From: an uncultured Actinomycetes bacterium
Lineage (GTDB): Bacteria; Actinomycetota; Acidimicrobiia; IMCC26256; DASPTH01
Direction: 5' to 3'
Length of the DNA: 64,000 nt
NCBI GenBank assembly: GCA_963756895.1
Contig: CAVWPI010000006.1
Span: 178,572-242,571, forward strand
Part shown: piece by piece, positions 5,758 to 31,538 of the stretch
Numbering within the stretch: position 1 is the first letter of the stretch
Layout: each line of letters begins with the position of its first letter
The notes under the pieces: model-generated
Seen by the model: only the letters and a program-made list of their open reading frames with translations
What the model was told of the DNA's origin: nothing
Database searches by the model: none
Made by a program: the position numbers and the translations under genes

Positions 5758-6443
5758 CTACGACGACGGGCCCGGGCGAGGCCGGTCCCTCGCGGGTGAT
5801 GCCGGCGCGCTTGGCGAGGTTCTTGTACGGCACGAGCACCGCAGTGCCGGCCACCGCGATCTCGCCGCGGGCGCGCACCTCGAACTTGGCCTTGAACTGC
5901 TCGCCGTCGGGTGTCGCACCCGCCCCACAGCTCGACCTCTTCGTCGAGCGGGAGCGCGCGCAGGTACCGGACGGTGAGCGACTTGGTGACGGTGCGCATG
6001 CCGATCGCCATGGGCGACGCCGCCACCAGCTGGTCGGCGAGCATCGCGCTGATGCCACCGTGCGCGTGGCCCGGCGGGGCCGACGAAGCGGCGCGTGAAC
6101 GTGGCGCGTGCCGACGACCTCGCCGTCGGCGACGCGCACCTCGACGTCGGGACGGGTCGGGCTGCAGTTCCCGATGATCGGGTTGAGCGGCATGTAGGTC
6201 TCCGGCCGCACCGGGATCGACCGGCAGCACGAGCAGTCCGGAGTAGCCGTCGTCGTCGGTCTCGCACCGACAGCCGATGCGTCAGCAGCTCGAGCGCGCC
6301 GCGTCACCTCGTCGAGCGTGGCGCGGTCGACCGCGGTCACCGCGATTGCGTCGGCGAAGCGCGCGCGTCGCGGCTGCGAGACGCTCGACGCCGTCGCGGC
6401 GCACCTCGGCGTCGTGACCTTCTCGGGCGTTCAGGGTGACCAT
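5758..6443 (-). pseudogene. PaaI/4HBT-type hotdog-fold thioesterase with N-terminal helical extension; about 4 frame breaks
   Basis: MVTLNAREGHDAEVRRDGVERLAAATRA / ...TAVDRATLDEVTRRARAA...YMPLNPIIGNCSPTRPDVEVRVADGEVVG / RATFTRRFVGP / PGHAHGGISAMLADQLVAASPMAIGMRTVTKSLTVRYLRALPLDEEVELWGGCDT / PDGEQFKAKFEVRARGEIAVAGTAVLVPYKNL. Same architecture as the C-terminal domain of 20104-22263. The 3-prime end is uncertain. Confidence 0.6.
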
Positions 6444-8227: not shown

Positions 8228-8834
8228 TCAGCGCGCGCGAATGCCGTCGAGCACGAACCCGAACAGACGCTCTGCGGTGTCGGGATCGTCGCTCTCTTCA
8301 GCCGCCAACGTGACTGCCTGCACCATCCGGACGAGGTCGTCGATGTCGACGCCGTCGCGCATCTGACCCGCGGCCTGAGCCCGAGCGAGCAGCGCGGCAC
8401 CGGCCCGGCGCATCGACTCGCACGCCGACGGCTCGTCGCGATCGGCGAGCATCGTGAGCATCGCCTCCGCGGCGAGACCTCGACAGGTGGCGGCCTGTTC
8501 GAGCTGCGCGTGCAGCCAGACTGCGAGGGCCTCGCCGGGCACGTCGGAAGCGAGCAGCTCTTCGGCCAGCGCCTGCAGTTCGTCGATGCGGTCGTGGAAC
8601 ACCGCCTCCACCAGGTCGTCGCGCGTCGGGAAGTGCCGGTAGAGCGTGCCGATGCCGACACCGGCGCCGCGGGCGATCTCCTCCAAGCGAGGCGTCGGCG
8701 CCGCGCGCCGCGAACACCTGGCTCGCGGTCTCCACGATGCGGGCCCGGTTGCGCACCGCGTCGGCGCGGGGCCGGCGGACGGCAGGGATCGGGAGGGCGG
8801 CGGGGGTCGGAATGGTGGAGCTGCGAGCGGTCAT
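8228..8834 (-). pseudogene. TetR/AcrR family transcriptional regulator; one frame break near 8690
   Basis: MTARSSTIPTPAALPIPAVRRPRADAVRNRARIVETASQVFAARGADASL / EEIARGAGVGIGTLYRHFPTRDDLVEAVF... The break lies at cttggagg. Divergent from the MFS gene. Confidence 0.8.
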
Positions 8835-8974: not shown

Positions 8975-10549
8975 GTGACCGAGCAGTCGTTCGCGCCCGC
9001 GCCCGCAGTCACCTCAACCGAGTACGCACATCGGGGCTGGATCCTGGCCGTGATGTGCACGGCCCTGGTGATGGTCGTCGCCGGCGTGTCGATGCTCGCC
9101 AACGCGATGCCGAGCATCGCCGGCCAGCCTCGACGCCAGCCAGTCGTCGCAGCAGTGGATCGTCGATGCGTACGCACTGGTGCTCGCCGCGCTGCTGCTC
9201 CCCGCCGGCGCGATGGGCGACCGGTTCGGGCGCCGCGGTGCGCTGATCGCCGGCACCGCCATCTTCGGCATCGGGTCGCTGCTGTCGGCGTTCGTGAGCT
9301 CGGCCGGACCCCTCATCGGGCTGCGCGCGCTCACCGGCCTGGGCGCTGCGCTCCTCATGCCGGGCACCCTGTCCACCATCACCAGCGTGTTCCCGCCGGA
9401 AGAACGCGCCAAGGCGGTCGGCATCTGGGCCGGCTTCGCCGGTGCCGGCGGCACGCTCGGCATCCTCGTCTCGGGCGCGCTGCTCGAGCAGTTCTGGTGG
9501 GGCTCGATCTTCCTCGTCACCGCCGGGACTCGCGGCCCTGTCGTGCATCGGCGTGATCGCAGTCGTGCCGAGCACGCGATCCGAGGAGCACGTCGGCCTC
9601 GACCCGCGCGGCGCCGTGGTGTCGGCCATCGGGATCGGCCTGCTCGTCCTCGGGATCATCGAGGGCCCCGAACGCGGCTGGACGGATCCGTTCACGCTCG
9701 TCGGCCTGATCGGTGGCGTCGTCTTCCTCGTCGGGTTCATCTGGATCGAGCTCCGCACCGACGAACCGCTGCTCGATCCGCGCCTGTTCTCCCACCGCGG
9801 CTTCGCAACCGGATCGGCGTCGTTGTTCCTGCAGTTCTTCGCCATGTTCGGCTTCTTCTTCGTGTCGCTCCAGTTCCTGCAGCTCGTGCTCGGATACAGC
9901 ACGTTCGAGGCTGCGCTCGCGCTGCTGCCGATGAGCATCGTGATCCTGCCCATCTCGCGCGGTGGCCGGGACGATGTCGGAGAAGTACGGGCACCGTCTC
10001 GTCGGTGGCATCGGCCTCGCGGTGTCGGCGATCGGGTTCGGGCTGTTCGCGACCCTCGGCACCGGGAGCGGGTTCCTGGCGTTCATGTTCGTGACCATCG
10101 TGATCGGCGTGGGCGCCGCGCTGGCGATGACGCCGGCCACCAACGCGATCGTCGCGTCGCTCCCCCGCGCCAAGCAGGGCGTGGCGTCGGCGGTGAACGA
10201 CACGTCGCGCGAGCTCGGCGCCGCGTTCGGCGTGGCTGTCCTCGGCAGCGCGTTCAACACCGGGTACCGCAACTCGATCGACGGCCACCTCACGGGTCTC
10301 CCGGGCGAGGTGGCACAACAGGCGCGCGAGGCCCCGGCCATCGCGGTGCAGCTCGCGGGACGCGTGCCCGGCGGCGCCGCCCTCGCCGACGCGGCTCGCG
10401 AGGCCTTCACCACCGGGATGCGCTACGCGGTGCTCGTGGGCATGGGCCTGCTCGTGATCGGCGCACTGTTCGTGTGGTTCCGCGGCGCTTCCCGTACCGA
10501 GGAGGTGCTCGAAGACGACCTGGACGAGTTGGAGCCCGCTGCCGCTTAG
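8975..10549 (+). pseudogene. MFS transporter, drug:H+ antiporter (EmrB/QacA-like, many TMS); 3 frame breaks
   Basis: GTG 8975 with GAGGAG 6 nt upstream. VTEQSF...GWILAVMCTALVMVVAGVSMLANAMPSIAG / QWIVDAYALVLAALLLPAGAMGDRFGRRGALIAG...LEQFWWGSIFLV / GLAALSCIGVIAVVP...FLQLVLGYSTFEAALALLPMSIVILPIS / AGTMSEKYGHRLVGGIGLAVSAIGFG...stop. Confidence 0.8.
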
Positions 10550-16223: not shown

Positions 16224-16973
16224 TCAGGTGACGCTGTCGTCCAGGGGCGCGATCGCCGGGGCGCAGAGGGAACCCACATGGGGCGTCATGAGCTCCTCGC
16301 GCCAGTGGACGGCCCAGGTGCGGGCGCGCTCGTGCCACGCCTCGAAGCGGGGATCGCCGGGGGTGTCGCCCTCGGACGCCAGTCCACGCGCGACGTCGCG
16401 CGCCTTGCCCGCCCGCACGTGCGCATCGGCGTCGGTGGCCCAGATGGTGCACACCTCGTAGTCGTTCATGAGCACCTCGTACAGCCCGACCAGTCGGTGG
16501 CCGTACTCGGCGAGCAGCGGCACACGCTCCTCGCGCACCGCGGCCAGGTAGTCGAGCGCCGTCCCCGGGCGCACCTCGGTGAGCTCGTGCACGAACAGCG
16601 AACCGCGGACCTCGTCACGCGTGAGCGACTCGATATTCGGGCACCCCGGGACCGCGCCGAGCAGTCGGTCGAAGCCGCCCGAGCGGTACTCGAACGCCTG
16701 CTTCCACCACGCGTTGAGCGTCACGTTGCTCGACCGCTTCAAGCCGAGGCGATCGACCTTGCCGAACCAACCGTCCCATCCACCGGGGATCTCCCACACG
16801 TTGACGACCTGCGGCCACCGGGCGGTGATGCCCATCGTGTACCAGGTGCCGAGGAGCTCGAACTCCACCTTCTCGTCACCCGACTGCTGGAGCGTGTGCT
16901 CCATGTAGTCCCACTGGTGCATGCCGTTGATGTCGATGAACTCGTGGAGGTACAGGTCACGGTCCGCTGCCAT
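16224..16973 (-). CDS. NIPSNAP-like protein (two dimeric alpha/beta-barrel repeats)
   Basis: ATG 16973 lies 6 nt after the upstream stop. MAADRDLYLHEFIDINGMHQWDYMEH... and the second repeat SLFVHELTEVRPGTALDYLAAVREERVPLLAEYGHRLVGLYEVLMNDYEVCTIWATD fit the NIPSNAP pattern. Confidence 0.5.
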   Translation of the reverse strand: MAADRDLYLHEFIDINGMHQWDYMEHTLQQSGDEKVEFELLGTWYTMGITARWPQVVNVWEIPGGWDGWFGKVDRLGLKRSSNVTLNAWWKQAFEYRSGGFDRLLGAVPGCPNIESLTRDEVRGSLFVHELTEVRPGTALDYLAAVREERVPLLAEYGHRLVGLYEVLMNDYEVCTIWATDADAHVRAGKARDVARGLASEGDTPGDPRFEAWHERARTWAVHWREELMTPHVGSLCAPAIAPLDDSVT

Positions 16974-16978
16974 TCCGC

Positions 16979-18555
16979 TCACGCGTCGTCTCCCCGGTCG
17001 AAGAGGTGCTGCAGGCCGGCCTTGTCGACCTTGCCCGTGGTGGTCATCGGTACGTCGTCCCCCCGATCGTGCACCACCGGGTCGGCACCTTGAAGGAGCT
17101 GAGCCGTTCCTTCGCACCGGAGGCAAGTTCGTCGACGGTCGCGCTCACGGCGTCGTCGGCGAGCACGACCACCGCGGCGACCTCGGTGCCGCCACCGGGA
17201 CCGACGACGTCGACCACGTAGGCGCGGCGCACCACGGGGAGCGCGTGCAACGCCCGCTCAACCTCGCTCGGATAGACCGTCGCACCGCGCACCTTGAACA
17301 TGTCGTCGCGGCGGCCCGTGAGGAACAGGAACCCGTCAGCGTCGAGGTGCCCGACGTCGCCGGTCGCGTAGAACTCGTCCTCGGTGAAGACCTCCGCACG
17401 CGTCCGACCACAGATGCCCCGCATGAGGTTGGGGCCGCGCAGCTGCAGCTCGCCGGTCTCACCCGCCGCGACCGGCGCGCCGGTGCCGAGGTCGACCACG
17501 CGCACCTCGACGCCGTCGAACACCTGCCCGCAACCGCCCTCCTTGCCGAGCGGGAGCGTCTGGTCGAGTCGGTAGCCGGCGTAGGGCCCGAACGACTCGG
17601 TCATGCCGAGCAGACCCGCACGCTGACCCGGGGCCGCCTGCTGAGCCGCGGGCATGACTGCGTCGAGGCTCCCCGGGCGGAGCGACGAGAGATCGGCCGA
17701 CGCGAAGCCCGGGTCGCGCGCCAGCGCCGCCGCCTGGTCGGGCCACCCGCGGAACAGCGTCACCCGTTCGCGCTCGAGGAAGGGCAACGTGCGCGCGGGT
17801 TCGGGCCGCGCTTCGGTGAGCAGGGTCGCTCCCGCGAGGAGGGTCGAGAGGAGGCCGGTGCCGAGACCGCCCACCCAGAAGAAGGGCATCGGGATGTAGA
17901 GCCGGTCGTCGCGCGTGAGGCGGCGGACCTCGAGGCCGGCGGCGGTCGCGGCCAACGCGCCGCCGTGGGTGTGGATCACGCCCTTGGGCGTGCCGCGGCT
18001 GCCGGAGGTGAACACGATGGCGAGGTCGTCGGCGGGTCGCACCGACGCGTCGAGCGCGGCGACGAGCTCCGGGGCGTGCGCCGTATCCGGAGCGGGACTG
18101 GCGTCATCCCACACCGTGACCGTGCGCAGGCGAGGCAGCACGTCGATCATCAGTCGCGGCCCCGCCACCAGCTCGGGCGAGATCGCCATGAGGTCCGCGA
18201 CGTAGTCACGACCGAGGAACTCGCCCGGGAGCACGAGATGCTCGACGCCCGCGGTCCGCAACTGCGCCGCCAGCTCGGGCGGGCGGAGGAAGGTGGAGAG
18301 CGGCACGAGGGTGGCGCCCGCGCGCAGCGCCCCGAATGCCACCACGGGCCACGCGGTGCCATTCGGCATCAGCACACCGACGCGCGTGCCCTTGCCGACG
18401 CCGAGGTCGACGAAGAGACCGGCACGTGCAGCGCTGCGGCGCTCGAGCTCGCCGTAGGTGAGGGTGTCGTCGGCAGTGACGACGAACGCTCGGTCGGGCT
18501 GCTCGTCGGCCCAGCGGCGGACCAACGCGGGCACGGTGAGGCGCTCAGTGCTCAT
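16979..18555 (-). pseudogene. Acyl-CoA synthetase (ANL adenylate-forming enzyme); one frame break in a C6 run at 17059-17064
   Basis: MSTERLTVPALVRRWADEQPDRAFV...IVFTSGSRGTPKGVIHTHGG...LLGMTESFG...YATGDVGHLDADGFLFLTGRRDDMFKVRGATVYPSEVE...FKVPTRW, then after the break DDVPMTTTGKVDKAGLQHLFDRGDDA stop. As assembled the ORF ends at 17044. Confidence 0.85.
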
Positions 18556-20107
18556 CGAACAGCTCCGCGATCGCGCCGAGGTCGGGCTTGCCGCTCGACA
18601 GCATCGGCAGGTCACCCGGTGCCAGCACCAGGAGACGACGGGGCACCTTGTACGCCGACAGGCGCGCCCGCAGATCCGTGCGCACGACGTCGAGGTCGGG
18701 CGCGGTGTCGGGCTCGGCCAGGATGACCGCCGCCACCACCTGGTCGCGCTCGGGGTCCGCGACGCCGATCACCATGCTCGCGAGCCCGCCGGTGATGTCG
18801 CTCAGCACCGCTTCGACCTCGAGCGGCGACACGTTCGCACCCGCGGTCTTGATCATCGAGCCCCGCCGGCCGTGGAAGTAGAAGAAGCCGTCGTCGTCGA
18901 CGTGGAACATGTCGCCGGTGCGGTACCAGCCGTCGGCGGTGAAGATCTCGAAGCGCTCCCGCCCGTAGTAGCCCTCCATCAGCGACGGACCGCGGAACCA
19001 GAGCTCACCCGTGGTGCCGACGGGCACGTCCGCCAGCGAGTCGGGATCCACGACCCGCGGGGTGAGGCCGGGGACCGGCAACCCGAACGAACCGCGTCGG
19101 CACTCGGGCTGGTCGGTCTCGTCGCCGCTCATGAGGCAGACGCTGCCGGTCTCGGTGGTGCCGAGCATGTTGTGGCGCAGCTCGAGGTCGGCCGGGCGGA
19201 TGGCCTCCGGCAGGAGGGGGTGCAGGTTGCCCGAGCGGATCGACGAGAAGTCGCGGGTCGCGAAGCTCGGGTGCGCGACCAGCGCCGCGATCGACGCCGC
19301 ATACCCGTTGGTGAGCTCAGGCCGCTCGCGCTCGATGAAGTCGAGGGTCTCGACGGGATCGGTGGCCGCCGAGCACAGCAGGGTGGCCCCGGCCACGAGC
19401 ACACCGATGATGTTGTAGGCGAGACCGCCGATCCAGAACATGGGCGAGTTCGAGAAGAGGCGGGTCCCGGCGTCGAGATTGCGGATGCCGTTCAGCGTGT
19501 GGAGGTGGCCGAGCAGCGCTCCGTGCTGGTGGATCACGCCCTTGGGCGCACTGGTGGAGCCCGATGTGTGGACGATGATCATGCGGTCGTCCGGGGTGAT
19601 GTCGTCCTCGACCGCGTCGAGCACCGCGTCGGGGACGTCGTCGGCGAGCGCTTCGAGGGCCGCGAACCCGTCGAGCCACACCTGCCGGAGGTGCGGCGCC
19701 GCGTTCGAGCGCGCGCCGTCGCCGACGGGCCCGACGGCGTCGTCGAGCGCGGCCGCGTAGTCGTTGCCGCGGTAGCTGCCCACACCGACCACGACATCGA
19801 CATCGGCGCGCGCGAGCAGATCGCGGAGCTCGCGCGCCGTGGAGAACGTGCTGATGGGGACGGCGATGGCACCGACGCGCACCGCGGCCAGCCACGCGAG
19901 CACGAAGTCGACCCCGGTCGGGAAGAGCAGACCGACCCGGCTGCCCCGACCGGCGCCGGTTGCGAGGAGACCGCGTGCGAGGACGCGGCTGCGCCGTTCG
20001 GCGTCGCCATAGGTCAGACGGTCGTCGTCGCAGACGACGTAGTCGGCGTCGGGCCGTGCGCCGACGTGCGCACGCAGCACGCGGCTGACCGTGGTCGCTC
20101 CGTTCAT
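18545..20107 (-). CDS. Acyl-CoA synthetase (ANL adenylate-forming enzyme)
   Basis: Intact 520 aa: IIVHTSGSTSAPKGVIHQHG, MLGTTETG, WYRTGDMFHVDDDGFFYFHGRRGSMIKTAGANVSPLEVE, LSSGKPD. The ATG overlaps the upstream stop (ATGA). Confidence 0.85.
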   Translation of the reverse strand: MNGATTVSRVLRAHVGARPDADYVVCDDDRLTYGDAERRSRVLARGLLATGAGRGSRVGLLFPTGVDFVLAWLAAVRVGAIAVPISTFSTARELRDLLARADVDVVVGVGSYRGNDYAAALDDAVGPVGDGARSNAAPHLRQVWLDGFAALEALADDVPDAVLDAVEDDITPDDRMIIVHTSGSTSAPKGVIHQHGALLGHLHTLNGIRNLDAGTRLFSNSPMFWIGGLAYNIIGVLVAGATLLCSAATDPVETLDFIERERPELTNGYAASIAALVAHPSFATRDFSSIRSGNLHPLLPEAIRPADLELRHNMLGTTETGSVCLMSGDETDQPECRRGSFGLPVPGLTPRVVDPDSLADVPVGTTGELWFRGPSLMEGYYGRERFEIFTADGWYRTGDMFHVDDDGFFYFHGRRGSMIKTAGANVSPLEVEAVLSDITGGLASMVIGVADPERDQVVAAVILAEPDTAPDLDVVRTDLRARLSAYKVPRRLLVLAPGDLPMLSSGKPDLGAIAELFDEH

Positions 20108-22263
20108 GCCCGTCGCGCCGACACCGCGGGCAGCGCGCCGTGGTCGCCCTTCGCCGCGGTGAGATGCGCCTCGCAGAGGAGGTCGTCGCCGAGGAGCAGC
20201 TCGGCGTAGGCGGTGATGCGGCGGTCGTCGACGACGCGCTCGGCCCGGAAGACGAGCGGCGTGAGCAACGGTGTCGGGCGCCGGTACCGGATCGAGAGCT
20301 CCGCGGTCTTGCCCGCCAGCCCCAGCGCGCAGTTGAGCTCCTGGAGCACGCAGTCGAAGAACACCGCGAGGAACCCGCCGTGCACGATGCCGGGTGGCCC
20401 CTCGTAGCTGATCGGGAACTCCACCGTGCCGTGCGCACCTTCGTCGTCACCGCCCTCGTCGAGCTCGAGCGCGTAGCGGGGGACGCACGGGTTGTAGTCG
20501 CCGACGTCGTAGCCGTGGTCGACGTAGACCCGCCGGTCGGCGTCGCCCGCGTGATCGCCGATGCGGGGGCGGAGATCCGCAGGTGCCTGGGCGGCGAGCG
20601 CGCGCTGTGCGTCGCGGACGGTCTGGATCAGCGCTTCGAGCTCCGGGCTCGTCTGCTCCAACGAGAGCGCGGTGTCGGTGAGCTCGCGCAGCGCCGCGGC
20701 CAGCTCCGCCATCGCGGGCAGCGGCGGCTCGCCGAACACCCATCGCTTGTCGACGCTCACGACCGCGTCCCTGTCCGCGTCGGCCACCAGCTCGCGCACG
20801 GCGGCGAGATCGACCTTGCCTGACGCGGTGCGCGGCAGCGCGTCGACCACCGTGACCGACACCGGGACCTCGTACCGCGCCAGGTGCGCGCCCGCGAACT
20901 CGAGGACGGTGGCTTCGTCGAGCTCGGCGTCCGGTCGTCGTTCGACCGCGGCCACCGGCACCGCGCCGAGGCGCTCGTCGTCGACGCCCACCACCGCGGC
21001 CTCGGCCACGCCGGGCACCCGCTCCAGCGCCGTTCGCACCACCTCCGGTTGCACCTTGTAACCCCCGCGGAGGATGGTCTGATCGGCACGGCCGACGATC
21101 CAGAGGAAGCCGTCGGCGTCGACACGCGCCAGGTCGGTGGTGCGCACCCAGTCGTCGGTGCCGAGCTGCTTGGCGCGCACCTCCAGCAGGCCGACGACGT
21201 CGAGCCCGAGGTCGGTGCCGTCATCGGGATCGATCGACGCGCAACGAGCACCCTGCGTGCGCGCGCGACCGACGCTGCCGCGCTTGGCGACGGCGAACTG
21301 CTCGTGGTCTGCGAGGTTCCAGCCGGCAACTCCGCCGCCGAATTCGGTGGCGCCGTACGACGTGAGCACCGGCACGCCGTAGCGCGCGGAGAACACATCG
21401 GCGATGTCGGGGTCGAGCGGCGCGGTGCCCGACACCACCGAGCGGATGCTCTCGAACACGTCGTCATCGACATCGGCGTCGAGCACCATGCGCAGCGCGG
21501 TGGGCACCAGGCTCACAGTCTTGGGCCGGTGCTCGCGCACCGCCGCGGTCCATCCGTCGACGCTGAAGCGCTCGAGCAGCGCGATGCGACGACCGTCGAG
21601 CATCGCCTGCACCACGCGGAACACGCCGCTGACGTGGACGAGCGGTGCGTTGACGATGACGACCCCGGACCGGAGCCGGACGTCGCTCCCCGTGTCGGTC
21701 TCGTAATGCTTGGCCCCCCGCATCACCTGGTGGAGCATCTCGTAGCGCAGGTCGATGCGCTTCGGTGGCCCCGTGGTGCCGCTGGTGAGCATGCGGACCG
21801 CGACGCCAGGCGCATCGACGACGGCCGGCGCAGCGGCCGAGGGAGTGACCGCGATCGGGGCGGCGAGCGCACCGATCTCACCCCGAGCGGTCGTCGGCAG
21901 GTCGTCGGGAGCGATCAGCGCGAGGTCGTCGGCCGCGCCGAGCAGCAGCGGGAGCCCGAGACCGGGGACGTCGGCGCGCAGCCGTTCGGCGCCGAGCAGA
22001 GGGTTGACCGTGACCACGCACGCACCGGCGCGCAAGAGTCCGAGCATGATGCCGAGGGGGGACGGACGGTTGCGGAGCATGAGCCCGACCGGCGACCCCG
22101 CGCCGAGCCCGCGATCGCGGAGCACCGCGTCGACCGAGTCGGCCGCCGCCGACAGCTCGCCCCAGGTGGACCAGGTGCCCTCGAACTCGAGCGCGGGCGC
22201 CGACGGGTCGAGCGCCAGGACCTCGCGGAGGCGTTCCGGAATCGCGCGCATCGGTTCGCTCAT
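20104..22263 (-). CDS. Fusion protein: ANL acyl-CoA synthetase domain plus C-terminal PaaI-like hotdog (thioesterase-type) domain
   Basis: ATG 22263 overlaps the upstream stop (ATGA). Ligase motifs: RMLTSGTTGPPKRI, SYGATEFGG, VRTTDLARVDADGFLWIVGRADQTILRGGYKV, PRTASGKVD. These are followed by a helical linker (PAMAELAAALRELTD...) and a hotdog core YEGPPGIVHGGFLAVFFDCVLQE...LSIRYRRPTPL. 719 aa, no frame breaks. Confidence 0.8.
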   Translation of the reverse strand: MSEPMRAIPERLREVLALDPSAPALEFEGTWSTWGELSAAADSVDAVLRDRGLGAGSPVGLMLRNRPSPLGIMLGLLRAGACVVTVNPLLGAERLRADVPGLGLPLLLGAADDLALIAPDDLPTTARGEIGALAAPIAVTPSAAAPAVVDAPGVAVRMLTSGTTGPPKRIDLRYEMLHQVMRGAKHYETDTGSDVRLRSGVVIVNAPLVHVSGVFRVVQAMLDGRRIALLERFSVDGWTAAVREHRPKTVSLVPTALRMVLDADVDDDVFESIRSVVSGTAPLDPDIADVFSARYGVPVLTSYGATEFGGGVAGWNLADHEQFAVAKRGSVGRARTQGARCASIDPDDGTDLGLDVVGLLEVRAKQLGTDDWVRTTDLARVDADGFLWIVGRADQTILRGGYKVQPEVVRTALERVPGVAEAAVVGVDDERLGAVPVAAVERRPDAELDEATVLEFAGAHLARYEVPVSVTVVDALPRTASGKVDLAAVRELVADADRDAVVSVDKRWVFGEPPLPAMAELAAALRELTDTALSLEQTSPELEALIQTVRDAQRALAAQAPADLRPRIGDHAGDADRRVYVDHGYDVGDYNPCVPRYALELDEGGDDEGAHGTVEFPISYEGPPGIVHGGFLAVFFDCVLQELNCALGLAGKTAELSIRYRRPTPLLTPLVFRAERVVDDRRITAYAELLLGDDLLCEAHLTAAKGDHGALPAVSARRA

Positions 22264-23051
22264 CGCACAGTGGGCGGCGTGCGGTCGACGCCGCGCTGCT
22301 GGATCTCCGCGAGGCCGACCGGGTTGCCGAGACGCGTGTACATGAGCCCCTGGTCCATCGCGGCGCGGTAGGGCTTGTCGAGCGACTCCCAGATCGCTCG
22401 GACCGTGCCCTGCGTCGCGACTGCCGGGTACGACGCGATCACACACGCGAGCTCGTGCGCGTGATCCCAGAGCCGGTCGCGCGGAACGACCTCGGTCACG
22501 AGCCCGAGCCGCAACGCCGTCTCCGCCGACACCCGCTCGCGGTTACCCATCAGGGCCATGCGCAGCGTGTCACCGAGACCGATGCGACGCATGAGCCCAA
22601 TCGGCTCGAGCGCCGACACGTAGCCGTAGGTGACGTGCGAGTCGAAGAAGGTGGCGTCGTCGGAGCACAGGACGACGTCGGCTTCGTTCACGAAGTAGAG
22701 CGCCCCGGCAGTGCACATCCCGTGCACCGCGCACACCACCGGCTTCCAACACTTCTGCCACTTGGGGCTGAGGAGCTCACCGGGATCATCGTGGTTCCAG
22801 ACGAGGTCGGGCTGCCCGAAGCTCTTCGATGTGTCGAGACCGGCCGAGAACGCGCGCTCCCCCGCCGCGCGCAACACCACGGCGTTGACGCGGTCGTCGG
22901 CCTTGACGACGTGCCACACGTCGCGCATCTCCTCGCACATCTGCCGGTCGAACGCGTTGAGCACCTCGGGGCGATCGAGGGTGACGGTGGCGACACGATC
23001 GTCGGGCGCAACTTCGTAGCGGATCGTGGCGTAGCTCACTCGGCTCTCCAC
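22260..23051 (-). CDS. Enoyl-CoA hydratase/isomerase (crotonase) family
   Basis: ATVTLDRPEVLNAFDRQM...VVLRAAGERAFSAGLD...KPVVCAVHGMCTAGALYF. GTG 23051, or GTG 23039 which forms a GTGA overlap with the upstream stop. Confidence 0.85.
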   Translation of the reverse strand: MESRVSYATIRYEVAPDDRVATVTLDRPEVLNAFDRQMCEEMRDVWHVVKADDRVNAVVLRAAGERAFSAGLDTSKSFGQPDLVWNHDDPGELLSPKWQKCWKPVVCAVHGMCTAGALYFVNEADVVLCSDDATFFDSHVTYGYVSALEPIGLMRRIGLGDTLRMALMGNRERVSAETALRLGLVTEVVPRDRLWDHAHELACVIASYPAVATQGTVRAIWESLDKPYRAAMDQGLMYTRLGNPVGLAEIQQRGVDRTPPTVR

Positions 23052-23839
23052 TGGGGCTCGCGCTTCTCCACGAACGCGTGCGGGCCCTCCTTGGCGTCTT
23101 CGGTGTGCAGGACCCGCTCGCGGAACGCCTCGGCGAGCAGCTCGGCCTCGTAAAGGGGCAACCCGAGACCCTTGCGAATTCCGAGACGCGTGCCGCGCAC
23201 CGCGAGCGGCGCGTTGCGGTTCACCATCGCTGCAAGCTCACGAAGCCGGTCGCCCAACAGGTCGTGCTCCACCACCTCTGTGATGAGGCCCAGCTCGTAC
23301 ACGCGAGCGGCGCTCAGGCGCTCCTGGCGACCCATGATCGCCATGCGCATGGCGACGTTGAGCGGCAGGGTGCGCGCCACCCGCACCATCTCGCGGCCGG
23401 ATGCCAGTCCGATGCTCACGTGCGGATCGAAGAACTGTGCTCGGTCCGAAGCGATCGCGATGTCGCAGGTGGTGACGAGATCCATGCCTGCGCCGCAGCA
23501 GATGCCGTTGACGCCCACGATGATGGGCTTGGCCATCGAGCGGAACGGCGGCGTCGCCTCCTGCGGCGCGTCCCACTCGTGGAAGCGCGAGAGGTACTTG
23601 CCGTCGAACGGCACCTTGCCGTCGTCACGCACCGTGTCGACATCGGCTCCGGTGCAGAACCCGCGTCCGGCAGCGGTGATGACGATGGTCCAGACGTCGT
23701 CGTCGGTCTCCACGCTCACGTAGGCGTCGGCCAGCTCCGCCTCCATCTGCCGACTGATCGCGTTCAGCTTGTCGGGCCGGTTGAACGTGATCGTCGCGGT
23801 GCGGTCCTCCACCTCGTAGAGGATCGTCTCGTACGTCAT
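23036..23839 (-). CDS. Enoyl-CoA hydratase/isomerase (crotonase) family
   Basis: MTYETILYEVEDRTATITFNRPDKLNA...VITAAGRGFCTGADV...KPIIVGVNGICCGAGMDL. ATGA overlap with the SDR stop. Confidence 0.85.
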   Translation of the reverse strand: MTYETILYEVEDRTATITFNRPDKLNAISRQMEAELADAYVSVETDDDVWTIVITAAGRGFCTGADVDTVRDDGKVPFDGKYLSRFHEWDAPQEATPPFRSMAKPIIVGVNGICCGAGMDLVTTCDIAIASDRAQFFDPHVSIGLASGREMVRVARTLPLNVAMRMAIMGRQERLSAARVYELGLITEVVEHDLLGDRLRELAAMVNRNAPLAVRGTRLGIRKGLGLPLYEAELLAEAFRERVLHTEDAKEGPHAFVEKREPQWRAE

Positions 23840-24621: not shown

Positions 24622-26521
24622 GTTCGGGGGCCGTGACCACGAAGTCGTCGAGCACAGGTTCCCGGGTCATGCGCCAGTAGTCGATGAGCTTCCACGGCAT
24701 GTTGGTCGTCACCCGGCCGGCGTCGTTGTTGTAGTAGCTGTGCACGCGCGGATGCCTCCACACGAGATGCTCGTGCTCGGCGTCGACGCGTTCGTTGTAG
24801 GCGTCGTGCACGTCGCTCCTGCACTCCATGGTGGACCACCCGTGCTCGAGCATGGCACCGATCGCCTTGACGACGTAGTTGACCTGGCATTCGAGCACGA
24901 ACACCACGCTCCCGACCACCGGGTTGGTGTTCGGTCCGTAGAGGCAGAACAGGTTGGGGAAGCCGGGCATCGTGATCCCCACGTGCGCGCGTGGATCGTC
25001 GCCCCACTCCTCGGAGAGGACCCGGCCCCCTCGGCCGGTGATGGTCATCGGCCAGAGGTACTTGTTGGGATGGAACCCGGTGCCGAGGACGAGCACGTCG
25101 ACGCTCGCGGCGCTCGCCCGACTCGCTGACCACCGCGTGGGGCTCGACCCGGACCACGCGCTCGTTCACCAGGTCGACGTCGTCGCGCAGCAGCGTGCGG
25201 AACCAACCGTTGTCCTGCAACATGCGCTTGCCCAGCGCCGGGTAGTCGGGCAGCACTTCGGCCACCAGCTCGGGACGATCGGCCAGCTCACGTTCGACGT
25301 GGGCGGTCATCACCCGGCGGATCTTGTCGTTCTGCCGGCTGATCGACACGTCGGTGTCGGGCCAGTCGGGGTCGGCCCGGAACGCGGAATACATCCGGTC
25401 GGCGCTGTTCCAGAACTGCAGCACCCGGTACCACGCCAGGTAGTGCGGCACCGTGCGGAACAGCCACTTCTCCTGGTCGGTGACCGGCCGGTGGTAGTCG
25501 GGGTTGGGCAGGACCCAGTGGCGCGACCGCTGGAAGATCGTGACGTCCGCGGCGTCGGGCGCCACCGCGGGCACGAACTGCATCGAGCTGGCACCGGTGC
25601 CGACCACCGCGATCCGCTTGCCGTGCATGTCGACGTCGTGGTCCCAGCGGGAGGAGTGGAAGGACGGGCCCGCGAAGGTGTCGAGGCCCTCGATGTCGGG
25701 CACCGCCGGACGGTTGAGCATCCCGACCGCGCTCACGAGCGCGTTGACCGTGATCTCCGACTCGCCCGTGCCGTCTCGGAGGCTGACGAGCCAGGAACCC
25801 GCGCCTCGTCGAAGGTGGCCGAGCGCACCTCAGTACCGAACCGCACGTGCGGCAGGACGTTGTGCTCCTTGGCGCAGCTCGCGATGTAGTCGAACAGCTC
25901 GTGCTGGCACGCGTAGAAGTGCGACCAGTCGGGGTTGGGCCGGAACGAGTACGAGTAGAAGTGGTTGGGCACGTCGACCCGGAGATCGGGATAGGTGTTC
26001 TCGAACCACGTCCCGCCGACGTCGGGGTTCTTGTCGAACACCGTGTACGGGATCCCGGCCTGCTCGAGGCGGATCGCTGCGCACAGGCCGCCGAGCCCGG
26101 CGCCGATGATGCCCACGTGGAAGCGCGCCAGCGTCTCGTCGTCCGGGCGCTCGATCCACTCGAATCGCCGACGGTCGGCGCCGTCGAAGTCGGCCTCCTC
26201 CTCGACCAGCGCGACGTACGAGGCGTCGACCGTTTCGCCGACCGCGAACTCGATCAGCCGGTGCATCTCGGCGGCGTCGGGTCGACGTTCGGATGCGGCG
26301 TCGGGCAGGCCGGTGAGCGTGTCGAACGCCCACGCCCGGATCGCCTCGGCGTCGTCGGCGGTGAGCGATCCCGGACCCCGCCCGTGGTCGAAGGTGCGCG
26401 GCTCGGGATGCGCGTCGACCACCGACAGGTCGCCGCTCAGGTGGGCCACCGCGGCAACGAGCACGGCGAGGTTGGCCGCGGGCAGCGCGGCCGCGAGCTC
26501 CCCCGCGTCGATCCGGTTCAC
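24611..26521 (-). pseudogene. Type I Baeyer-Villiger (flavin-containing) monooxygenase with ~135-aa N-terminal extension; 2 frame breaks (near 25790 and 25100)
   Basis: MNRIDAGELAAAL...FHVGIIGAGLGGLCAAIRLEQAGIPYTVFDKNPDVGGTWFENTYPDLRVDVPNHFYSYSF... / ...LDTFAGPSFHSSRWDHDVDMHGKRIAVVGTGASSMQ... / MLVLGTGFHPNKYL...NLFCLYGPNTNP... The BVMO fingerprint FxGxxxHxxxW[P/D] and two GxGxxG motifs are present. Confidence 0.8.
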
Positions 26522-30352: not shown

Positions 30353-31538
30353 ATGACGACACGACCTCTCGACGGGATCAAGGTTCTCGACCTGTCCCAG
30401 GTCGTCTCCGGTCCGATCTGCGGGAGGATGCTCGCCGACCTCGGCGCCGACGTGGTGAAGCTCGAACCCCCCGGCGGCGACATCATCCGCTTCCTCCAGC
30501 CCAAGGTGGGCGACGACCCGGTCAGCGTCTACTTCACGTGGGTCAACGCAGGGAAGCGCTCCGTGTCGCTCGACCTGAAGACCGAGCGCGGTGCCGCGCT
30601 CGCCCGCGAGCTCGCGCTGGCGAGCGACGTCGTGCTCGAGAACTTCCGTCCCGGCGCGCTCGCGCAGTACGGACTCGACCACGAGTCGCTCCTGGCGGCG
30701 AAGCCGAGCTTGATCTACTGCTCGATCAACGGCTGGGGCGGCGACAACTCCTGGTCCCAACGGCACGCGTACGCGGCCATGGTGCAGGCGGAGGTGGGTC
30801 GCGTCGAGCTCGACGCCCGGCTGCGCGAGGCGCCGCCCGAGCAGAGCCCCCACGTCGACGGTGACATCACTCCCGGCCTCCTCGCCGCGACCGCCGTCGT
30901 GAGCGCGCTGTTCCACCGCGCACGCACGGGTGAGGGCCAGCACCTCGACGTGTCGATGGCCGAAGCGCTCGTGTACACCGACGAGTGGACCTCGACCGAT
31001 CTCGCCGGGTACGAGGGGCCGCGAATCCCCGACACGTGGAACTACCCGATCTTCCGCGTCGCCGACGGCACCGACGTCGCGTTCATGGGTGACCCGACCG
31101 GCCGACTGGTCGAGATCGCCGCCGCCATCTCCGACGACGTGGTCGAGCCCACGAAGTCAGCGCGAGGAGGCCTGGCGGGTCCTCGCCGAACTCGTCGCGC
31201 GCGTGCCCGACTTCCCCACGCTCGAAGCGCGCTTCGACCTCTTCGGCTTCCTCGTGTCCGAGGTGCGCACCGTCCGACAGCTCGCGGAAACGCCGTGGGC
31301 GGAGGAGCGGGGCGTGTTCGTGGAGGTGGAACCGGGAGCGCGCGTCGCCGGTGCGCCGTTCCACTCCGACCGGACGACCATCGGGGTGCGCGGCCCGGCC
31401 CCTCGGTTTGCCCACCACACGCGTGCCGTGCTGGCCGAGCGCTGCGGGCTCTCCGACGACGAGCTCACACAGCTCGAGGCCGACGGCGTCATCCATTCCA
31501 CCGGCGACATCGACACCGCCCGTCCCGACTGGAGGTAG
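30353..31538 (+). pseudogene. Family III CoA-transferase (CaiB/BaiF type); one frame break near 31150
   Basis: MTTRPLDGIKVLDLSQVVSGPICGRMLADLGADVVKLEPPGGD...VLENFRPGALAQYGLD...GEGQHLDVSMAEAL... / ...EEAWRVLAELVARVPDFPT...APFHSDRTTIGVRGPAPRFAHHTRAVLAE... Confidence 0.8.

Follow-up and report, generated by a model that had tools for sequence, protein, structure and literature searches.

An apparent acyl-CoA ligase–thioesterase fusion in an Acidimicrobiia operon is probably a pair of translationally coupled genes joined by one extra base

In the phenylacetate pathway PaaI is found beside PaaK, and this thioesterase acts on another thioester than the ligase does; the same logic applies to the 4-hydroxybenzoyl-CoA thioesterase, a hotdog protein found beside 4-chlorobenzoate-CoA ligase and a crotonase-fold dehalogenase. 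In human THEM4, another hotdog thioesterase, we take H152, D161 and T177 to be the active-site residues. The best solved relative of the thioesterase described below is 2OV9 (RHA08564 of Rhodococcus jostii RHA1, a structural-genomics target), a stand-alone protein without an assigned substrate or function. It belongs to the PaaI subfamily and forms a hotdog dimer with a four-helix bundle, to which each subunit contributes two helices, and the PaaI consensus motif contains the catalytic Asp (PMC2698920). In Corynebacterium glutamicum the hydrolysis and resynthesis of acyl-CoA by Tes and FadD is described as a futile cycle serving lipid homeostasis in this actinobacterium (PMC7851686).

In the window, i.e., the whole stretch of 64,000 nucleotides that was analysed, a ligase and a PaaI-like thioesterase appear to be covalently joined. 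The apparent fusion is a stop-free reading frame of 719 aa at 20104–22263 on the minus strand, in which a complete ANL acyl-CoA ligase is followed by a helical hairpin and then by a PaaI/THEM4-like hotdog domain. An earlier sequence-only reading had given this frame, its length and a set of motifs (TSGTTGPPK, YGATE, GRADQTILRGGYKV, SGKVD, YEGPPGIVHGGFLAVFFDCVLQE and IRYRRPTPL), all of which were recovered in the translation, and the domain identities that it assigned (complete ANL ligase, helical segment, PaaI-like hotdog thioesterase) agree with Pfam and with matches to solved structures. The covalent fusion that it proposed did not hold: the frame is continuous because of indels in the ligase gene and at the junction, and is open only through them. 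The window probably carries two separate, translationally coupled genes, and the extra G that joins them is probably a consensus indel error of long-read sequencing. These would be an acyl-CoA ligase of ~496 aa and a hotdog thioesterase of 218 aa, the GTG start of which overlaps the TGA stop of the ligase (GTGA, 20760–20757); a spurious G at 20776–20775, 15 nt 5′ of this overlap, would shift the ligase frame and give the apparent 719-aa fusion.

The true ligase gene would occupy 20757–22251 on the minus strand, as judged from DNA alignments to the related loci L001 and L002 and from a tblastn search with the L004 ligase, the match of which begins at 22251. The ATG at this position (MRAIPERL) is the start used by orthologues, and the stop is the TGA at 20759–20757 after the inserted bases are taken out; from this start, and with four extra bases deleted, the product is exactly 496 aa, equal in length to the orthologues P0001 and P0002, and GRAHAGCSLRVVDPD is recovered. 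Orthologues span 493–500 aa. The 50 best ligase matches (75–91% identity) are 488–508 aa long. On the minus strand, the AMP-binding (ANL N-terminal) domain covers residues 16–366 (21166–22218; PF00501, E = 8e-47, 160.3 bits vs. a gathering score of 29.9) and AMP-binding_C covers residues 412–483 (20815–21030; PF13193, E = 6e-16, 59.6 bits vs. 24.5), with the hinge GRADQTILRGGYKV just 5′ of the latter and SGKVD, which holds the A10 lysine, just 3′ of it. All ANL core motifs were found, namely TSGTTGxPK (A3), YGxTE (A5), the GRxDxxI hinge (A8) and the SGK lysine (A10), and these are also kept in orthologues; by these sequence features the protein belongs to the ANL superfamily (class I adenylate-forming acyl-CoA ligases). 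No NCBIfam equivalog cut-off was reached by the ligase, the best being PRK06187 (236 bits vs. 476).

The stand-alone thioesterase gene, placed by homology and gene calls, would span 20104–20760 (minus strand; 218 aa plus stop). The domain searches proposed by the earlier reading gave a mixed outcome: both ligase domains exceed their Pfam cut-offs, whereas 4HBT remains under its gathering score (15.5 bits vs. 20.6), and TIGR00369 is under its cut-off as well (12.5 bits vs. 36.6). The hotdog identity of the C-terminal region nevertheless held, since its 223 aa match the solved hotdog thioesterases 2OV9 (E = 2e-20), THEM4 (2e-6) and THEM5 (5e-3), and the 2OV9 match runs through the helical extension as well as the hotdog core (query residues 21–202). 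From the 2OV9 alignment and AF2 secondary structure, the N-terminal helical hairpin is placed at residues ~15–58 (20587–20718, minus strand), with AF2 helices at residues 15–33 and 39–58 (pLDDT 83–93); it corresponds to the helix pair that each 2OV9 subunit gives to the four-helix bundle of the dimer (PMC2698920). The hotdog core lies at residues ~95–203 (20152–20478, minus strand), according to the 2OV9 and THEM4 alignments, AF2 and Foldseek. The AF2 model as a whole is of low confidence (pLDDT 58.6) and its secondary-structure order fits a hotdog fold; in Foldseek this model had 2OV9 as its top match (E = 4.7e-4), followed by THEM4, at TM-scores of only ~0.3. The predicted catalytic stretch, H127-G128-G129 ... 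D136 ... T152 (20305–20382, minus strand; alignment to 4gah/4ae8), places the HGG, Asp and Thr at THEM4-equivalent positions, and all five residues are invariant across 37 homologues. Both 2OV9 and the window thioesterase carry the YxGPPGxVHGG...D...RYxRPTPL motifs, at only ~30% identity, and Rhodococcus homologues are named ‘PaaI family thioesterase’ by PGAP. Human THEM4 (CTMP) and THEM5 (4gah, 4ae8, 4ae7) share the core motif EGPPGxxHGGxxxxxxD...T...Y(K/R)RP with the window protein, and the spacing from His to Asp (+9) and from Asp to Thr (+16) equals that of human THEM4; they differ in being eukaryotic and mitochondrial, with long-chain acyl-CoA as substrate, the bacterial helical hairpin is missing from them, and only ~56 of their residues align.

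At the junction the window can be compared with L002, an 866-nt MEGAHIT short-read contig that is ~97% identical in DNA to window positions 20060–20930 and is the only close relative spanning the junction. Where the window reads GACGCGGACAGG, L002 reads GACGC-GACAGG, so that the GG at 20775–20776 (minus strand) is a single G in the closest relative; the insertion was seen in the L002 alignment, by direct read-out and in a 6-way alignment, in which it is unique to the window. This extra G puts the ligase frame into that of the thioesterase. L002 has one G less, and therefore its ligase ends in ...ELVADATGMRS* and its thioesterase begins with VSVDKRW, the two overlapping by GTGA. Deletion of the G from the window gives a ligase tail of ...ADATGTRS-TGA, a 7/8 match to that of L002, and the GTGA is found at 20757–20760 (minus strand) by L002 alignment and direct read-out. 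An AGGGA Shine-Dalgarno-like element lies at 20772–20768, 5′ of the thioesterase GTG, and P0121, a 218-aa protein with 97% identity to the window thioesterase, was called from the same GTG; in L001, L003, L004 and L017 the overlap is ATGA. The inserted G lies outside any long homopolymer. The sequence-only reading had held that the fusion was no obvious assembly artefact, and relative to L002 there is a frame break between the domains at this very GG, within the 20700–20800 junction that it had singled out for checking; its caveat that a hidden indel pair might be present proved well placed, given the single G here and a further pair inside the ligase gene.

That pair, seen in DNA alignments at 21234–21268 (minus strand), consists of +2 (CG in a CGCGCG run, ~21267) and +1 (A, ~21234) and swaps the conserved GRAHAGCSLR(V/I)VDPD for GRARTQGARCASIDPD. 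It is because of these insertions that the window reads GRARTQGARCASIDPD instead of GRAHxGCxLRVVDPD; the intact segment was not found in the window ligase as read, and deletion of the 3 bases restores it. The GRAHxGCxLRVVD motif is present in all orthologues listed, and none of the 2-, 3- and 6-way DNA alignments shows the pair outside the window.

The split state prevails among relatives. Each of 17 related loci has two separate genes at the junction (L001–L016 by frame analysis, and L017), gene calls for L001, L003 and L004 concur, L019 likewise has separate genes, and adjacent ligase and thioesterase genes in related loci overlap by ATGA or GTGA. That the fusion is a selected, conserved bifunctional architecture is extremely unlikely. 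The search for the same architecture elsewhere, suggested by the earlier reading, did return six proteins of 638–726 aa with both domains among the ligase matches; yet all are singletons with 69–74% mutual identity, P0070 and P0082 are frame-scrambled in AMP-binding_C, and P0051, the one checked, is nested among closer relatives (86–90% identity, 494–498 aa) that are split. In addition, the 120 best thioesterase matches (63–97% identity) are without exception stand-alone proteins of 173–236 aa, and in Microthrixaceae the thioesterase lies ~1.2 kb 3′ of the ligase. A conserved fused architecture is thus contradicted already by the singleton fusions and the split nearest relatives. P0051, from a JGI short-read contig, is fused via a net 41-nt deletion; in P0065, P0066 and P0069 the C-terminus of the ligase is intact and the linkers differ. 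These four share with the window the two domains and their order, and in each the ligase C-terminus is intact and continues into ...RWTFGxxPLP, but they are only 53–57% identical to the window protein and use other linkers, and the window junction, unlike theirs, is one base away from its nearest relative. These rare fusions of the same gene pair, which arose independently in a few distant lineages, look genuine, so that the fused state is biologically tolerated. They also lend something, together with the uninterrupted 719-aa frame and the 4-nt gene overlap that makes a fusion mutationally easy, to the idea of a real and very recent frameshift. The product would then be a genuine bifunctional enzyme of 719 aa, possibly accompanied by free thioesterase from the internal GTG, and the hotdog domain would dimerise it and act in cis on some thioester that is not the ligase's primary product. 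Such an event is unlikely: the ~97%-identical L002, the sole close relative over the junction, is split, and the fused allele has no second sighting in protein and metagenome searches. It was absent from a search of 5.8 billion proteins (best full-length match, 57% identity) and from 12 loci of GTDB species-representative genomes; a scan of metagenome contigs for the exact junction, whether the extra base was included or left out, gave zero matches, and a flank-anchored pattern found only the split L017 there.

The +2/+1 pair in the same gene, which scrambles a motif kept in all orthologues, also speaks against a recent frameshift, and it is one of many such lesions. Orthologues that are intact in L004 (P450, BVMO, CoA-transferase, MFS, a 172-aa ORF and TetR) align to the window in 2–4 frame pieces, and indels unique to the window and not a multiple of three were found at 31160, 25800, 25105, 21267, 21234, ~20779 (where the aligner puts the extra G of 20776–20775), 18556 and 17063. 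With a frame-shifting indel roughly every 2 kb, in genes that are otherwise well conserved, the sequence-quality reading is far more economical. If instead the indels were real, the ligase/thioesterase frame would be a pseudogene in a degenerating catabolic island, as the many frame-broken genes across 8–32 kb might indicate. This is very unlikely, since the pieces flanking the breaks keep 83–92% amino acid identity to orthologues, like most intact neighbours, and the differences of the ligase from L001, judged by eye, fall mostly at third codon positions, which points to purifying selection, not decay. Moreover, the large contigs syntenic with the window come from Microflora Danica MAGs, which were assembled with Flye from Nanopore reads only and given a single round of Medaka (PMC12313526). 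In a 6-way alignment over 8 kb these relatives have 0–18 private single-base indels each, in sets that differ among the sister Nanopore MAGs, whereas the short-read assembly L013 has only two unique indels, both at gene boundaries. From the indel pattern and these relatives we infer a long-read assembly as the source of the window, and an error, not a real mutation, as the nature of the G. Consensus errors of a Nanopore-type metagenome assembly are the most likely origin not only of the junction base but also of the +2/+1 pair 450–500 nt upstream and of the window's many other frame breaks. That the long frame stays open through all three indels of the ligase gene would be somewhat unexpected of random errors; the locus, however, had been picked by the earlier reading for its long ORF.

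The two genes lie in a larger operon on the minus strand. Upstream, an enoyl-CoA hydratase-family gene (22260–23051; ECH_1, E = 3e-34), the stop of which overlaps the ATG at 22263, is joined by a second gene of this family (23036–23839; ECH_1, E = 5e-42); downstream, a second ANL ligase of 520 aa (18545–20107; ORF listing and domain search) starts with an ATG that overlaps the thioesterase stop as ATGA. In total the operon includes two amidohydrolase_2 genes, a BVMO, an SDR, three crotonase-family (ECH) genes, three ligases, a family III CoA-transferase, an acyl-CoA dehydrogenase and a P450 gene. The ligase and the PaaI-like thioesterase are a real translationally coupled pair in this conserved Acidimicrobiia catabolic operon. 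A paralogue at 5758–6443 (minus strand), which had been described as a stand-alone gene of the same layout, does exist and has a hotdog core (6077–5946, 39% identity over 44 aa), but it is readable only by hopping across three frames.

The locus is mainly cautionary. In high-GC operons with ATGA and GTGA overlaps, one indel in the final codons of the upstream gene can give a convincing ‘multidomain fusion’, and long-read MAGs contain indels enough to seed false domain architectures and, with them, false mechanistic puzzles. A tethered ligase and thioesterase had been seen as a futile-cycle problem, and with the fusion most likely existing only on paper, through the extra G, that puzzle falls away. 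What remains is the consistent coupling of a 2OV9-like PaaI/THEM4-type thioesterase with an ANL ligase in the Acidimicrobiia BVMO/crotonase/ligase operon, and this coupling, together with the occasional real fusion, is a usable hint of functional partnership for work on the 2OV9 family. Were the extra G true, it would imply that ligase and thioesterase work as a physical complex; that this is a newborn fusion, one among several independent ones, whose hotdog dimer edits or off-loads pathway thioesters, is quite unlikely.

Of the resolutions that the earlier reading had proposed, two remain sensible for the gene pair: the hotdog protein may work on another thioester or one further down the pathway, or it may proofread. 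By analogy, the ligase would make an acyl-CoA that feeds a CoA-dependent catabolic route, and the co-expressed hotdog dimer would cleave a different thioester via its conserved Asp, Thr and HGG, be it a product further down the route or an acyl-CoA that is mis-activated or a dead end, thereby releasing product or recycling CoA. The Tes and FadD enzymes of C. glutamicum are separate and unlinked, and belong to other families than the window pair (PMC7851686); nothing indicates a cycle of that type at the window locus. The closer likeness is to the PaaK/PaaI and 4-chlorobenzoate systems, in which, as in the window operon, an ANL ligase, a small hotdog thioesterase and crotonase-family enzymes are co-expressed, and in which the thioester that is hydrolysed is a later or a dead-end one, hence without a futile cycle. 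Unlike them, the window operon includes a BVMO, amidohydrolase_2, a P450 and three ligases; the likeness is one of operon logic.

The apparent fusion is encoded on the reverse strand of the window at 20104-22263, where a stop-free translation of 719 aa contains all the motifs quoted in the sequence-only reading, so that the ORF described there is borne out. The Pfam search of this protein placed AMP-binding at residues 16-366 (E = 8e-47) and AMP-binding_C at residues 412-483 (E = 6e-16). The covalent joining of this ligase to a hotdog thioesterase, proposed in the same reading, did not hold, since the in-frame join hinges on one G that is absent from the nearest short-read contig (DNA ~97% identical), and the junction is split in 17 of the 17 comparator loci examinable there, including 12 loci from GTDB species-representative genomes. 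Most probably, then, the fusion is an artefact of an assembly or sequencing indel, and it should be treated as not real.

The contig in question (L002) is an 866-nt MEGAHIT assembly carrying P0121, the best match to the thioesterase (97% identical, 218 aa), whose gene call begins at the GTG that is also in-frame in the window. In this contig the ligase tail reads ...ELVADATGMRS before its stop and overlaps the thioesterase start by GTGA. Over the 866 nt the sole indel between the two sequences is one G, the window having GACGCGGACAGG and the contig GACGC-GACAGG; the extra base is one of the two Gs at 20776-20775, which precede the GTGA (20760-20757) by 15 nt, and with it removed the window ligase ends ...ADATGTRS-TGA. 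The two genes overlap by ATGA in the comparator loci L001 (91% amino-acid identity), L003, L004 and L017. When the full-length protein was searched against 5.8 billion proteins, its 50 closest relatives (75-91% identity) were stand-alone ligases of 488-508 aa, several of them labelled Acidimicrobiia, and two-domain proteins were seen only at 50-57% identity; the best 120 matches to the thioesterase domain (63-97% identity) were all stand-alone proteins of 173-236 aa. A metagenome scan gave no match to the junction pattern in either state, fused or split, and a flank-anchored scan matched one locus, which was split.

The same ligase gene carries two further insertions, of CG at ~21267 and of A at ~21234, which turn GRAHAGCSLR(V/I)VDPD, a motif kept in every orthologue retrieved, into GRARTQGARCASIDPD; the motif is restored exactly once these three bases are deleted. 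If the ligase is begun at 22251, where its orthologues start, and all four extra bases are taken out, it comes to 496 aa, a length equal to that of its homologues P0001 and P0002. As gene calling with a simple GC3/GC2 filter proved too coarse to place frameshifts, they were located by tblastn of intact orthologues and by multi-way DNA alignments, and the frame pieces were counted by aligning the intact proteins of the syntenic locus L004 to the window. The P450 gene (10549-11796) was found in four pieces, the Baeyer-Villiger monooxygenase (BVMO) gene (24623-26521) in three, and the genes for the CoA-transferase (30362-31535), the MFS transporter (9715-10546), a 172-aa ORF (9146-9659) and the TetR regulator (8234-8813) in two each. 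Three-way and six-way DNA alignments showed that the breaks in the broken genes are window-unique indels whose lengths are not a multiple of three, and in the third ligase the frame is lost near 17063, where the window alone lacks one base of a G run. The PaaI-like thioesterase paralogue on the reverse strand at 5758-6443, cited as a stand-alone gene in the sequence-only reading, can be followed only through three different frames and is thus either broken or mis-sequenced; its hotdog core, 39% identical over 44 aa, lies at 6077-5946.

Frame-shifting indels amount to ~1 per 2 kb over 8234-31535, a density that points to indel errors left over in a long-read assembly. Genuine decay would also leave genes in pieces, and is judged very unlikely; the pieces are still 83-92% identical to their orthologues. 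Among the syntenic relatives the large ones are MAGs of the Microflora Danica set, Nanopore-only Flye assemblies with one round of Medaka polishing (PMC12313526), and the indel profile of the window fits this class. In an 8-kb six-way alignment the private single-base indels numbered 7 in L001, 3 in L003 and none in L004, and the short-read relative L013 had only two, both at gene boundaries. The same operon in L016 (MFD05442.bin.4.822, contig_4519), a Nanopore MAG that serves as a GTDB species representative, has 18 private indels in these 8 kb, an indication of how many errors a public long-read MAG can contain. Caution is in order with overlapping genes in such MAGs.

The ligase and thioesterase genes may nevertheless be joined elsewhere. 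Because they overlap by 4 nt, their fusion is mutationally easy, and P0051, from a JGI short-read contig (L018), looks like a genuine case: compared with its 90%-identical split relative P0241 (L019), it has a net 41-nt deletion in which the end of the ligase, its stop codon and the beginning of the thioesterase are lost. In the window, a real and recent strain-specific frameshift that gives a bifunctional protein is regarded as unlikely. A selected, conserved fused architecture is scarcely credible. Both domains were present in only ~10 of 504 retrieved proteins, and in a search of a representative library with P0051 they occurred together in no more than a handful of fragments; P0065, P0066 and P0069 are clean fusions that are singletons 69-74% identical to P0051, with a different linker in each, and in P0070 and P0082 AMP-binding_C itself is frame-scrambled. 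A conserved clade of fused proteins was rejected, since the fused forms are scattered singletons and P0051, the one checked, is nested with closer relatives that are split (ligases of 494-498 aa, 86-90% identity). The fusion is thus tolerated but sporadic. A literature search found nothing specific on natural ANL-hotdog fusions. In P0318 (739 aa, on a 3662-nt JGI contig), from another relative, a different overlapping boundary of the same operon has been bridged: the upstream enoyl-CoA hydratase/crotonase-family (ECH) protein is joined to the ligase, and Pfam finds ECH_1, ECH_2, AMP-binding and AMP-binding_C on a single chain. This fusion, too, is sporadic.

The identity of the thioesterase rests on homology to PDB sequences, because the profiles fell below their cut-offs: the 4HBT hotdog profile of Pfam scored 15.5 bits on the C-terminal domain, under the gathering score of 20.6, and TIGR00369 of NCBIfam was likewise below cut-off. 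In the C-terminal 223 aa, the match to 2OV9 from Rhodococcus RHA1 (E = 2e-20) ran through the helical extension as well as the core; human THEM4 (2e-6) and THEM5 were matched too. The catalytic residues of THEM4, namely HGG, an Asp at +9 and a Thr at +16, are spaced identically in the window thioesterase, and H127, G128, G129, D136 and T152 (numbered from the GTG of the inferred stand-alone 218-aa protein) are invariant across 37 homologues. The AF2 model of the domain, built on a 37-sequence alignment in which no member falls below 63% identity to the query, is of low confidence (pLDDT 58.6) and was used solely for secondary-structure order, which is correct (two helices, strands, a long helix, four strands), and for a weak Foldseek ranking, in which 2OV9 came best and THEM4 next. 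2OV9 is described as a hotdog dimer of the PaaI subfamily with an extra four-helix bundle, to which each subunit gives two helices (PMC2698920), and this explains the helical segment of ~60 aa remarked on in the sequence-only reading. The NCBI pipeline names Rhodococcus homologues "PaaI family thioesterase". From the Pfam ligase matches, the PDB homology, the conserved residues, the model and this naming it follows that the calls of ANL ligase, helical segment and hotdog domain were correct.

Three tandem genes with that annotation occur on a plasmid of Rhodococcus sp. BH4 (NZ_CP014942.1, 4435-6375), adjoining an enoyl-CoA hydratase-related gene and another acyl-CoA thioesterase-domain gene, with an AMP-binding gene nearby. 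The last of the three is distantly related to the window thioesterase (38.7% identity over 54% of the query), and the record contains a second, weaker match placed on no gene. In cultured actinomycetes the family is expanded and tied to CoA metabolism.

The locus is a conserved operon. Genes for a GntR regulator and a family III CoA-transferase lie on the opposite strand and are followed in order by two amidohydrolase_2 genes, an ECH gene, the BVMO, a short-chain dehydrogenase and two consecutive ECH genes. Then come the ligase and thioesterase, two more ligases and a conserved 248-aa ORF, an acyl-CoA dehydrogenase on the opposite strand, and an F420H2-dependent quinone-reductase-family (PF04075) gene, the P450, the MFS transporter and the TetR regulator. 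The three tandem ANL ligases are on the reverse strand (22263-20757, 20107-18545 and 18555-~17065), with boundaries overlapping by 4 nt. The ORF downstream of them (16230-16973, reverse strand) had no Pfam match; at 93.5% identity to its L004 orthologue, it is an uncharacterised member among the best conserved genes of the operon.

The operon has the look of a CoA-dependent pathway by which a ketone, a lactone or an alicyclic compound is catabolised, and the coupling of the two genes gives a modest hint of functional linkage for the uncharacterised 2OV9-like thioesterase family. The substrate of the thioesterase would most likely be the thioester of a downstream product, or one that has reached a dead end, and not what the ligase itself makes, in which case no futile cycle is implied; the proposal that it acts on a different thioester thus seems sensible for the gene pair, not for a fusion. 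Analogues of such a role are PaaK/PaaI and the 4-chlorobenzoate pathway, with its ligase, crotonase-fold dehalogenase and hotdog thioesterase.
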